18,650 nt of DNA from a virus. The position numbers were made by a program, and so were the translations under genes. The stretch lies in UHGV virus genome UHGV-0185506; one strand, 5' to 3'. Numbering within the stretch: the first letter of the stretch is position 1; each line of letters opens with the position of its first letter. Of the stretch, positions 14,954 through 17,456 are shown piece after piece. The notes beneath the pieces are model-generated. The model did not search any database. It worked only from the letters and a program-made list of their open reading frames with translations, and was not told the origin of the DNA.

Positions 14954-15034
14954 AGCTTCAGCCCCTTGTATCCGTTAAATGATTCGGCAACAATCATCAC
15001 CCACCACGCGCGTAATCTCACCCCTGCGCCGTTC

Positions 15035-15051
15035 TTGTCGCCCGGCGACAA
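15035..15051. promoter_or_regulatory. Perfect 17-bp palindrome TTGTCGCCCGGCGACAA in the divergent FI/D intergenic region; candidate activator site
   Basis: Seen directly in the sequence. Centred about 90 nt upstream of the FI ATG and about 68 nt upstream of the D ATG. The function is inferred, not shown. Confidence 0.3.
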
Positions 15052-15110
15052 CAAAAAGCAGTAACCCCGCCCGCACACACATGCGACCATGCCGCACAGG
15101 GAGGGAGCAG

Positions 15111-16220
15111 ATGACCGATACCACCATGCAATTGCTCAGTCAGGGCACAGACCCCGTGAAAATGCCGGATTTTGATATTCTTGCGGAGGGTAAAACGCTG
15201 TCAGGCGTGGCAGAGCGCCTGATGAGCCTGTCACTGACCGACAACCGGGGATTTGAGGCGGACCAGCTCACCATCACGCTGGATGATGCGGATGGTCAGT
15301 TGCAGCTACCGCCACGGGGCGCGCGCCTGACGGTTCTCATTGGCTGGAAAGGAGAACCGCTGACAGAAAAAGGCACTTACATTGTTGATGAAATCGCTCA
15401 CGAAGGACCGCCAGACAGGCTGACAGTTTCAGCCAGAAGCGCAGATTTTCGGGATGAATTTAACGTTAAACGTGAGGTGTCCTGGCATGATGTGACCGTT
15501 GAGCGTGTGGTATCCGCCATCGCTCATCGGTATGGTCTGAAACCGCAAATCAGCGAAATGCTGATGGATATCGAAATCGACCACGCCGACCAGACCGAAG
15601 AAAGCGACATGTCCTTCCTTACGCGCATGGCGGAAATGCTGGGCGCAATCACTACGGTAAAAAGCGGTAATCTGTTATTCATCATGCCAGGCGGTGGCGT
15701 GAACGCGCAGGGCCAGCCGTTGCCCTCGTTCGCCATCACACGCAGCAGCGGCGATCGCCATCAGTTCCGCATTGCTGACCGAGAGGCGTATACGGGGGTA
15801 CGCGCTTACTGGCTTGATCTTAATTACGGGAAAAAGAAAAAAGTCAGCGTGAAACGCCGCAAACCGCAAAAACCCAAAAAGGAGAAAAGCAGCAGCCGTG
15901 AAGGTGATTATATGGAAGGCGCGGAAGGCAATGTGTTTGTGTTACGCAAGACTTATCAGAACGAGCAGGCAGCAAGACGCGCAGCGGCGGCAAAGTGGCA
16001 GCAGCTACAACGCGGAGCCGCATCATTCTCCATCACGCTGGCGCGTGGACGCGCAGAACTCTATCCCGAAATGCATGGCACGGTAGCAGGCTTTAAAAGC
16101 GAGATTGATAATCAGGACTGGATTATTGCAAAAGCCGAGCACACCATTGATAACAGCGGCTTTACCACGCAGCTTGAGCTTGAGGCAAAAATCCCGGAAT
16201 GGATAGCGGAAACAGAGTGA
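15111..16220 (+). CDS. D: Late tail gene D product (P2 gpD-like)
   Basis: ATG at 15111 with SD GAGGGAG. …LSLTDNRGFEADQLTITLDDADG…RSADFRDEFNVKREVSWHD…ITRSSGDRHQFRIADREAYTGVRA…WLDLN… matches the remembered gpD throughout. The track ORF start at 14979 is an upstream extension. Confidence 0.9.
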   Translation: MTDTTMQLLSQGTDPVKMPDFDILAEGKTLSGVAERLMSLSLTDNRGFEADQLTITLDDADGQLQLPPRGARLTVLIGWKGEPLTEKGTYIVDEIAHEGPPDRLTVSARSADFRDEFNVKREVSWHDVTVERVVSAIAHRYGLKPQISEMLMDIEIDHADQTEESDMSFLTRMAEMLGAITTVKSGNLLFIMPGGGVNAQGQPLPSFAITRSSGDRHQFRIADREAYTGVRAYWLDLNYGKKKKVSVKRRKPQKPKKEKSSSREGDYMEGAEGNVFVLRKTYQNEQAARRAAAAKWQQLQRGAASFSITLARGRAELYPEMHGTVAGFKSEIDNQDWIIAKAEHTIDNSGFTTQLELEAKIPEWIAETE

Positions 16221-16261
16221 GCAACTTAGAATAGCGGCAGCACTACGTTAAGGGGGTTGCC

Positions 16262-16522
16262 ATGTTCCGTTGTCCGCTTTGTGGCGCATCTGCCCGTATC
16301 CGCACCAGTCGTTCGGAAAATGATTCAGATACCGTACGGAAAAAATATTACCAGTGTAACAACCTGGAATGCGGCGTATGCTTCTCAACACTGGAAGCTT
16401 TCCATAAATTCACATCGAAACACGCCTCCGGCGTTCACTCTTCAGATGGTATCCCGTGGCATGAGCTGCCAGCTTCACACAGGGGAAACAATCAGATGAG
16501 TTTGCCTTTACCTCAGAATTAA
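16262..16522 (+). CDS. ogr: Late gene transcription activator, Ogr/Delta zinc-finger family
   Basis: MFRCPLCGASARIRTSR…YYQCNNLECGVCF carries the CxxC…CxxC arrangement and N-terminal similarity to the remembered P2 Ogr. SD AAGGGGG upstream. Confidence 0.85.
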   Translation: MFRCPLCGASARIRTSRSENDSDTVRKKYYQCNNLECGVCFSTLEAFHKFTSKHASGVHSSDGIPWHELPASHRGNNQMSLPLPQN

Positions 16523-16712
16523 CAGGCAGAATTGCCGGAGCAACAAAAAAGCGATAGATTACGCGCGGGTGCCTTTCGGCTGATGGTCGGAGGGAATACC
16601 CGAAGGCCAGATGTGGAAAGGCCCCGGAAAACATTTTTGTTTAACCGAGGCCCTAACCGTCTACCCTAAGCAAGTGATAGGTTAGCGCCTCCCCGAAAAA
16701 GGAGCAAGCGCT

Positions 16713-16853
16713 ATGTCGCAAAAATCGCTTATGGCCATCACGTTCTGCGTGACGGCAATCCTCATCATCTGGATGCTGCACGGTTCGCTGTGCGAAATAC
16801 GGATGAGCTTCTGGGGAGCGGAGTTTGCGGCGTTCTTACAGTGTAAGCAGTAA
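16713..16853 (+). CDS. Hok/Gef-family type I toxin (46 aa); absent from the ORF track because of its length
   Basis: Translation MSQKSLMAITFCVTAILIIWMLHGSLCEIRMSFWGAEFAAFLQCKQ. One TM helix followed by the SLCEIR…AAF signature, as in Hok (…[23 protein letters not shown]). SD AAGGAG 6 nt upstream of the ATG. Confidence 0.65.
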   Translation: MSQKSLMAITFCVTAILIIWMLHGSLCEIRMSFWGAEFAAFLQCKQ

Positions 16854-16942
16854 GGAAACCGCGACGGGGGAGCAATCCCCCGTCAATCGGTTGCCAGGGT
16901 AAGGTCGATAAGGCACCCTATCTCACAGACATGAACAACAAA

Positions 16943-16974
16943 CCCGCAGCATAAAAACTGCGGGTTTTCTTTTT
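16943..16974 (+). terminator. Intrinsic terminator downstream of the hok-like gene
   Basis: CCCGCAG-cataaaaa-CTGCGGG followed by ttttcttttt. Confidence 0.7.
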
Positions 16975-17120
16975 GGTGTCCTCACCGACTTGAAACAGTG
17001 ATCAGACTATAAGACAAAGCCCACAATGTAGCGGGCTTACTCCCCTCCCCCCACTAAATGTGGACACATCGTGGAACGAAGAGATATAAAACATTATAAA
17101 TCAATTGGTTATTGAAAGAA

Positions 17121-17150
17121 AAAAGGCCGCAGAGCGGCCTTTTTAGTTAG
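17121..17150 (-). terminator. ihfA intrinsic terminator (bidirectional hairpin)
   Basis: aaaaaa-GGCCGC-agag-GCGGCC-ttttt immediately downstream of the ihfA stop. Confidence 0.75.
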
Positions 17151-17156
17151 ATCAGA

Positions 17157-17456
17157 TTACTCGTCTTTGGGCGAAGCGTTTTCGACCCGGCTTTTTAACT
17201 TCTGCCCTGGTCTGAAGGTCACCACGCGCCGTGCTGTAATGGGAATATCTTCGCCCGTTTTCGGGTTACGTCCCGGACGTTGATTCTTATCACGCAGATC
17301 GAAGTTACCAAAGCCAGAGAGTTTTACCTGCTCGCCGTTTTCCAGAGCGCGACGGATCTCTTCGAAAAACAGTTCAACCAGTTCTTTGGCATCCCGCTTG
17401 CTAAGCCCAAGCTTATCAAACAGATATTCTGACATTTCAGCTTTTGTAAGCGCCAT
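17157..17456 (-). CDS. ihfA: Integration host factor alpha subunit
   Basis: 99-aa translation ([99 protein letters not shown]) matches E. coli IhfA as I recall it. Confidence 0.95.

Follow-up and report, generated by a model that had tools for sequence, protein, structure and literature searches.

The 18,650-nucleotide (nt) virus genome UHGV-0185506, analyzed as one strand and referred to below as the window, very probably carries a phage-borne toxin-antitoxin cassette of the hok/sok type I class at ~16532-16976, in which the mRNA of a 46-amino-acid (aa) Hok toxin can be folded in two alternative ways like hok mRNA of plasmid R1, and a Sok-like antisense RNA is predicted on the opposite strand. 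Type I modules of this kind combine a stable, pre-folded toxin mRNA with a labile antisense RNA and a peptide that depolarizes the membrane. Profile, RNA-structure, and comparative evidence supported the identification of the open reading frame (ORF) as a Hok-family type I toxin at the edge of a prophage. The locus combines a toxin of the Hok family, an mRNA of the hok type, and an antisense RNA of the Sok type, and it was not assigned to the canonical three-gene hok/mok/sok modules, because a mok frame was not found.

The toxin ORF starts with ATG, has 46 codons, and is preceded by the Shine-Dalgarno (SD) sequence AAGGAG, with 8 nt separating GGAG from the start codon. A preliminary description of this region, made from the sequence letters, had pointed to this ORF, its good SD, and a Hok/Gef signature, all of which were found to be present, and a profile search, in which the lack of a Hok-family hit would have been a refutation in its terms, gave such a hit: the peptide matched Pfam PF01848 HOK_GEF over residues 7-44 with 30.2 bits (E 3.5e-7) compared to a curated cut-off of 22 bits. 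The match to PHROG 251 was stronger (80.3 bits; E 1.6e-22). PADLOC, which has no model for the peptide, gave no defense-system match. A hydrophobic stretch at residues 5-22 (Kyte-Doolittle mean, ~2.5) is followed by SLCEIR and AAF. Cys12, Thr14, Leu26-Cys27-Glu28, and Glu37 align with HokA-E and R1 Hok, and these Cys, Thr, Leu-Cys-Glu, and Glu residues are among the conserved Hok positions listed in a survey of the family (bioRxiv 10.1101/2025.08.07.668861). The ratio of nonsynonymous to synonymous substitution rates (dN/dS) of the 46 codons was mostly 0.1-0.6 between relatives that differ at up to half of their residues. The peptide is evidently produced and under purifying selection.

The closest named paralogue of the peptide is HokA of Escherichia coli. 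The top NCBIfam model was HokA (33 bits compared to an equivalog cut-off of 89), identity to K-12 HokA was 43%, and the two peptides share an MxQK start, a W-M motif, and an AAFLxCK tail. HokA differs in having 50 residues and in its upstream region, as K-12 mokA is annotated with the stop coordinate of hokA, implying an in-frame upstream extension, whereas the counterpart frame in the window family is shut by an invariant TAG. In the survey mentioned above, the matching group is Hok 'cluster 72' (Escalera-Maurer et al., bioRxiv 10.1101/2025.08.07.668861), a high-abundance cluster in which peptide 72_1621 differs from that of the window only at residue 7, where it has Thr in place of Met. Its members include WP_000078916.1 and gp52 of phage P88 (YP_009113095.1), which come from the same cassette. 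The survey overexpressed 72_1621 and the Stx2-phage variant 72_1589 and named only 19_179, 60_1482, and 69_1540 as non-toxic (bioRxiv 10.1101/2025.08.07.668861). The survey text implies that the one-residue variant 72_1621 is toxic on overexpression. The survey was limited to the coding sequence and explicitly set aside mok, Sok, and mRNA structure (bioRxiv 10.1101/2025.08.07.668861); no published regulatory analysis of the cluster-72 subfamily was found.

Sequence comparison assigns the cassette to the phage and not to the host, because the K-12 site is empty and the same arrangement is found in sequenced phages. The last part of the window holds the right arm of a P2-like prophage, in which a gene D homologue (14979-16220) is followed by the gene for the ogr zinc-finger activator (16262-16522; a Pfam Ogr_Delta match), and on the host side ihfA (17157-17456, minus strand) and pheT. 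The preliminary description had located the cassette between ogr and the host junction, which is correct, and had added that it could be host-resident, which is not. Residence in host DNA at ihfA-btuC, outside the prophage, might be suggested by the position of hok as the last gene before the junction, only ~260 nt from host sequence, but this was refuted by the proposed comparison with K-12, in which the ihfA-btuC interval is 100 nt long and has no hok or similar sequence and homology to which resumes at window position 17115, directly past the ihfA terminator. The ogr-hok arrangement is identical in sequenced phage genomes. Furthermore, the cassette was present at the ihfA site in only 324 of 5426 complete E. 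coli genomes, compared to 5190 that have the ihfA flank. The chance that the cassette is host DNA is therefore negligible.

Phage Chuche has the same cassette DNA after ogr, and phage P88 has it after the tail gene D homologue; in the P88-like (Xuanwuvirus) group its place after ogr is that of the window. It was also found in phages P884B11, 500465-2, and PhiR44_2 and in Citrobacter phage Shae_phiSM. Beyond the cassette, Chuche has com, a gene for a DNA methyltransferase, and int, and from this gene order the cassette is terminal cargo that adjoins the attachment site.

The junction itself was located at 17114/17115, the prophage being inserted directly after the ihfA terminator (17116-17144). 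STnc540, an Rfam enterobacterial small RNA at the end of ihfA and its terminator, matched 17071-17215 on the minus strand (39 bits compared to a gathering score of 38), and the last ~60 positions of the model, which now face prophage DNA, aligned poorly. The ~130 nt that separate the end of the P88/Chuche homology from the first K-12 homology (16985-17114) matched neither; they contain a C-rich run and a minus-strand terminator-like hairpin (17017-17038) and presumably represent an attachment-site arm specific to the integrase type.

The limits of the cassette were apparent from the comparison of its copies. Sequence similarity among copies starts exactly at the -35 box of the predicted hok promoter, and similarity to the Stx2-phage copy stops just past GCACCC at 16918. 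The pattern TTGCN(17)TANATT occurs at a fixed distance (6 nt) from GGGTGCC in 16 of 17 unrelated contexts, while the spacer and the upstream DNA vary. Transcription is predicted to start at G16567. In the window, the unit would thus run from the promoter (16532-16560) through the mRNA body, which extends to the fbi element at 16918, to the terminator (16940-16976). In most copies an intrinsic terminator comes next, past the end of the shared similarity; the terminator of the window is kept in P88, Chuche, and island copies and is replaced in lambdoid copies. The GC stem-loop and the intrinsic terminator that had been described after the ORF were both recovered, the former as a 9-bp G+C hairpin (16863-16884) and the latter as a stem (16940-16967) followed by a T tract.

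The leader has the features of a hok mRNA. Rfam RF01794, which carries the name 'sok' but models the sense-strand hok leader, matched plus-strand positions 16567-16726 over the full length of the model with 47 bits (E 2.6e-9; gathering score, 59). This match was obtained in E-value mode only, and at the gathering threshold Rfam returned STnc540 only and no hok/sok family, so the covariance search for hok/sok RNA that had been proposed as a check was positive by E value and fell short of the gathering score. Conservation was evaluated in an alignment of 29 distinct relatives, to which 80 IMG/VR loci (98-100% identical in protein) contributed some leader variants and little divergence, and a scan of genome contigs (five loci, three labelled outside Enterobacteriaceae) added little extra diversity.

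The single-sequence minimum-free-energy fold of the 355-nt RNA (-162 kcal/mol; z = -6.8 versus shuffles) was a closed conformation. Its first 15 nt (16567-16581), the tac element, pair with fbi (16903-16918), an end pairing that is the hallmark of the inactive full-length mRNA in the R1 model. The tac element is nearly invariant in the 29 sequences, and the RF01794 alignment starts at its first position. The tac/fbi helix has 15 pairs and was paired in 93.8% of cells, with an invariant GCACC and variation that is mostly G-U compatible. In the same fold, GGCC.CGG (16620-16627) pairs with CCG.GGCC (16645-16652), a ucb/GAGG stem that repeats the C·A mismatch seen at R1 C74/A106 (PMC9841398), and UAGCGC-CUCC pairs with GGAG-GCGCUA (16683-16692 with 16701-16713), sequestering the hok SD and AUG (97-99% paired). 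Across the relatives, 93.2% of cells were paired compared to 37-45% when the partners were slid, a margin that is partly built in because the fold was derived from one of the 29 sequences. Compensatory changes, which are less affected by this, were found at 25 pairs compared to 6-14 in the slid controls, and they were concentrated in the leader/3' untranslated region (UTR) helix, a hairpin in the coding region, and the 3' stem-loop, the last of which was paired in 98.9% of cells and contained 4 compensatory pairs.

The RNAalifold consensus of the same sequences chose an open conformation, in which tac is paired with GGAAAGGCCCC (16616-16626, ucb) and GAGGCCCUAAC (16647-16657) with GGUUAGCGCCUC (16680-16691, dcb). 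The tac/ucb pairing (alifold columns 1-14 with 47-59) was kept in 27-29 of the 29 copies and is near-invariant, hence covariation was uninformative. Because the minimum-free-energy fold and the consensus fold give different conformations, both alternative states of the R1 model are predicted to be encoded in the window cassette.

The preliminary description could not place a sok gene with confidence. Homology now places one on the minus strand at ~16671-16611. The annotated K-12 sokC and sokB RNAs begin 48-49 nt upstream of the hok start codons and end ~104-107 nt upstream of them. The alignments of these two RNAs with the minus strand of the window cover the RNA body as well as the promoter, and the predicted ends lie equally far from the hok ATG. 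The predicted RNA would have the shape of a Sok RNA, in which a single-stranded 5' tail of 17 nt precedes a long hairpin, and a UUUCC end (-25.6 kcal/mol; z = -3.7). The sokB promoter (TTGCCG, 17 nt, TAAGAT, 7 nt, G) has its counterpart in TTGCTC, 17 nt, TAACCT, 7 nt, and G16671, a pattern that had one match in the window compared to 0.01 expected by chance. AGGTTAG, which is complementary to the -10 box, does not vary in any of the 29 copies. A cis-antisense Sok gene with its own promoter is thus indicated by homology.

The mok gene, which had likewise not been placed, is absent from the window copy. R1 mok, mokB, and mokC start 57-58 nt before hok, and at -57/-58 a start codon (ATG, GTG, or TTG) was found in 0 of 29 copies; none follows the 16645-16657 element that corresponds to the R1 mok SD. 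No start codon in the window copy, canonical or near-cognate, yields an ORF that reaches the hok SD. Frame 0, the frame of hok, is shut by TAG 16683-16685, which is invariant because it lies inside the sok -10 box, the +1 frame is shut repeatedly, and the +2 frame is open at 16670-16849 but is shut upstream by TAA 16667-16669 and has no start codon of either kind before hok. The long +2 frame and the leader ORF that begins at ATG 16611 were considered as mok and rejected as conserved features.

It is unlikely that the cassette is a canonical hok/mok/sok module in which the part of mok is played by a leader ORF that begins at ATG 16611 or ATG 16583 and terminates just before the hok SD. GAAGG precedes ATG 16611, a codon found in 28 of 29 copies, the predicted Sok RNA covers its ORF, and a ribosome terminating at TAG 16683-16685, 15 nt before GGAG, would melt the 16683-16692/16701-16713 hairpin. 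Moreover, an ORF of 60-78 codons from one of the two ATGs reads over the hok start in 10 of 29 relatives; the remaining 19 do not have one. However, the ORFs from the two ATGs have end points that range between -79 and -16 relative to hok, and that of ATG 16611 ranges from 1 to 29 codons in varying frames, with ATG-TGA in the 2015C copy and no ATG in Salmonella diarizonae. The two leader ATGs are conserved because both lie within structurally conserved helices, and ATG 16611 is base-paired in the closed as well as the open conformation. It is also located at the 3' end of the Sok target, unlike the starts of mokB, mokC, and R1 mok, which are at the 5' end. Because the ends of the leader ORFs vary, the ATG is lost in one copy, and read-through is limited to 10 of 29 relatives, comparative analysis indicates that the mok frame is not conserved in the cluster-72 subfamily.

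It is possible, and we suggest it tentatively, that cluster-72 cassettes have dispensed with mok and that Sok controls Hok through a relay made of RNA only. The dcb box overlaps the hok anti-SD, so that the open fold would expose the SD without mok. In such a relay, which we regard as conceivable rather than probable, tac would take ucb after 3' trimming, and the freed GAGGCCCUAAC (16647-16657) would pair with the anti-SD GGUUAGCGCCUC (16680-16691), exposing the hok ribosome binding site (RBS). Sok bound to 16611-16671 might then block the relay, a suggestion that is equally tentative.

Several observations weigh against the assignment of the cassette to a working hok/sok-type system. The RF01794 leader match scored under its gathering threshold (47 compared to 59 bits). 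The predicted sok promoter is weak by consensus (3/6 plus 3/6), with a poor -10 box, TAACCT, and a generic sigma-70 promoter scan of 16200-17300, the kind of promoter prediction that had been proposed as a check for the antisense strand, was empty, with both the hok and the sok promoters sub-threshold; their placement therefore came from conservation and homology. For R1 hok, translation of mok as far as the hok SD is described as 'absolutely required' (PMC9841398), and the window copy has no mok. In partition-function folding of the window copy, the probability that the hok SD is unpaired was 0.02 in the full-length RNA and 0.05 after 3' truncation, with a maximum of 0.38 in any relative. The effect of truncation on the SD is thus small in the window copy and at most modest in relatives. 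These folds do not account for the activation step, translation of the window copy might be poor, and the relay is offered as a hypothesis. Finally, the chromosomal hokA, hokB, and hokC loci are reported to be without post-segregational killing (bioRxiv 10.1101/2025.08.07.668861).

Some of the same points would fit a hok copy that is translationally silent or decaying, with no toxin made from the native transcript without mok and no function for the phage: no leader ORF reads into the hok start region in the window copy, R1 hok needs mok translation (PMC9841398), the SD is paired in the full-length and truncated folds, and chromosomal hok loci are reported to be inactive. Decay does happen in this family, as the promoter, the SD, and part of the leader are gone from the S. 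diarizonae copy. This explanation is nevertheless quite improbable. It does not account for dN/dS values that are mostly 0.1-0.6 over 46 codons in copies differing at up to half of their residues, for the conservation of both promoters, tac, ucb, the anti-SD, and fbi in P2-like, lambdoid, Stx2, and island contexts, or for the full-length cassette in 1740 genomes. The mok-type ORF is missing in 19 of 29 diverged copies, and its absence looks like a family trait and not like a recent lesion.

Compared to the hok/mok/sok (parB) system of plasmid R1, the cassette shares the Hok toxin, the tac, ucb, dcb, and fbi elements, the two folds, the 3' hairpin, and an antisense RNA with a 5' tail and a hairpin. 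It differs in its peptide (30% identity, with the R1 Hok sequence matching Table S2 of the survey; 46 compared to 52 residues), in having no mok ORF at -58 or reading into hok, in a leader that scores below the gathering score of the model, and in being located on a phage and not on a plasmid. The only system of this kind with a demonstrated phage phenotype is hokW-sokW of the Stx2 prophage Sp5, in which loss of Sok on induction is associated with earlier lysis and an approximately twofold increase in progeny (PMC8621323); Sok is gone after mitomycin C, Hok appears ahead of the endolysin, and deletion halves the released phage (PMC8621323). The cassette of the window is likewise prophage-borne, but an identification with hokW was rejected, as HokW is a different paralogue of 51 residues that is HokD-like (survey cluster 35; 35_712). 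The 'MokW-like' label on P88 and Chuche is a misnomer that derives from PHROG 251.

The cassette is not new, being already in databases and literature. 'Hok/Gef family protein' is the name of every match listed, and all full-length matches listed are annotated; the copy in E. coli strain VG38-53E1 (WP_000078916.1), which differs by one residue, bears this RefSeq name, and annotated phage records label the cassette 'MokW-like host killing' or 'hok/gef family protein'. The word "unannotated" in the preliminary description thus applies to the raw window only and not to public data. A relative of the cassette with 75-99.5% identity was found in 1750 of 5426 complete E. coli genomes and was full length in 1740, so that the subfamily whose elements are mapped here occurs in roughly one third of these genomes. 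Diverged copies occur in lambdoid phages, Stx2a-converting ones included, where they follow lom or lie between gene J and the tail-fiber gene, and in genomic islands by a type B L31 gene, in a triple tandem array by serS, and in Salmonella.

A number of individual loci were noted in the course of the comparison. In E. coli 2013C-3033, the array by serS (L012, 1820-3369) consists of three tandem complete cassettes, each with a promoter, tac, and fbi, whose diverged peptides have 48-96% identity to that of the window. Phage Lyz12581Vzw (L004, 1521-1875) and many Stx2a phage records have a cassette of the 46-aa subfamily with 82% DNA identity, which appears to be additional to hokW (51 aa, HokD-like) of Stx2 prophage Sp5 and is unannotated in most LC6454xx records. 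In an integrative and conjugative element (ICE) and the O157 urease island (L008-L010, 2589-2858), the cassette is always ~300 nt downstream of the gene for type B (zinc-independent) L31. The decaying copy in Salmonella enterica subsp. diarizonae (L018, 2374-2708) has no promoter boxes, a deletion of 15 leader nt that includes the conserved ATG, and an SD altered from GGAG to CGAG; its ORF is intact. Subfamily Hok ORFs with 72-96% protein identity in a Planococcaceae metagenome-assembled genome, Vagococcus sp., and Xanthomonas pisi (L014, L015, and L017) most likely represent enterobacterial contamination of the assemblies. Many predicted prophage contigs (L021, L036, L038, and ~40 other IMG/VR loci; length, 3141) end 3 nt past the hok stop, and gene-based boundary calling therefore removes the hok 3' UTR, fbi, and terminator. 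In VG38-53E1 (L001, 1-2601), a 3.1-kb coding sequence directly upstream of ogr is named 'MFS transporter' by PGAP, which is odd in a P2-like tail region; either the prophage differs upstream of ogr or the PGAP name is wrong.

Table 1. Positions in the window of the toxin gene and of the predicted regulatory elements of the cassette
Feature	Position	Strand	Basis or comment
Predicted hok promoter, -35 TTGCCG (16532-16537), 17-nt spacer, -10 TAGATT (16555-16560)	16532..16560	+	Conservation across contexts
tac element, 5' end of hok mRNA, GGGUGCCUUUCGGCU	16567..16581	+	Pairings with fbi and ucb
Non-conserved 24-codon leader ORF (ATG 16611, TAG 16683-16685)	16611..16685	+	Probably not a mok equivalent
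Predicted Sok-like antisense RNA, ~61 nt	16611..16671	-	Alignment with K-12 sokB and sokC; ends inferred
ucb-like box GGAAAGGCCCCG	16616..16627	+	Alternative partner of tac; closed-fold pairing with the GAGG region
CCGAGGCCCUAAC, counterpart of the R1 mok SD/Sok-target region	16645..16657	+	Aligned to GaGGC in the Rfam consensus
Predicted sok promoter, -35 TTGCTC (16707-16702), 17-nt spacer, -10 TAACCT (16684-16679)	16679..16707	-	Homology to the sokB promoter
dcb-like box and hok anti-SD GGUUAGCGCCUCC	16680..16692	+	Closed-fold and alifold pairings
hok SD AAGGAG	16700..16705	+	Direct sequence reading; 8 nt between GGAG and ATG
hok, 46-aa Hok/Gef-family membrane toxin	16713..16853	+	Pfam PF01848, PHROG 251, HokA identity, conserved residues, dN/dS
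3' stem-loop, putative protective end hairpin of the processed active mRNA	16863..16884	+	Analogy with R1
fbi element GGUCGAUAAGGCACCC, fold-back partner of tac	16903..16918	+	tac/fbi helix
Intrinsic terminator, predicted end of the primary hok transcript	16940..16976	+	Stem and T tract; scores on both strands

By analogy with R1, hokW, and the family at large, a constitutive promoter would produce a stable mRNA of ~350-410 nt, the full-length form of which would lock tac to fbi. In this locked form the Sok target would be folded away and the hok RBS paired with the upstream anti-SD, so that the RNA would be neither translated nor attacked. Slow 3' trimming to the 16863-16884 hairpin, for which a protective role is carried over from R1 (PMC9841398), would strip fbi, and tac would move to ucb as the leader refolds. 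An unstable Sok-like RNA, transcribed from the minus strand (~16671-16611), would pair with the refolded leader, blocking Hok synthesis and delivering the duplex to RNase III. When the supply of Sok ends or is outcompeted on induction, the 46-aa Hok would be made and inserted into the inner membrane, with depolarization or lysis as the outcome. Without a mok frame, activation would have to act directly on the hok RBS or via a leader ORF that does not overlap hok.

In a P2-like prophage, three roles would be plausible: prophage retention by post-segregational killing, exclusion of other phages, and assistance of lysis on induction. R1 hok/sok reportedly excludes T4. Assistance of lysis has been demonstrated for the paralogous hokW-sokW in Sp5 (PMC8621323). 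As terminal cargo of P2-like prophages that is also present, alongside hokW, in Stx2a phages, the cassette is a candidate for retention, exclusion, or lysis-timing roles.

The only mildly new aspect of the locus is its apparently mok-independent control. A peptide under purifying selection in the absence of a conserved mok frame bears on how general mok coupling is across Hok loci, and if the tentative relay is true, P2-like, lambdoid, and Stx2 phages, together with genomic islands, would have spread a version of the textbook hok/sok mechanism that works without mok.

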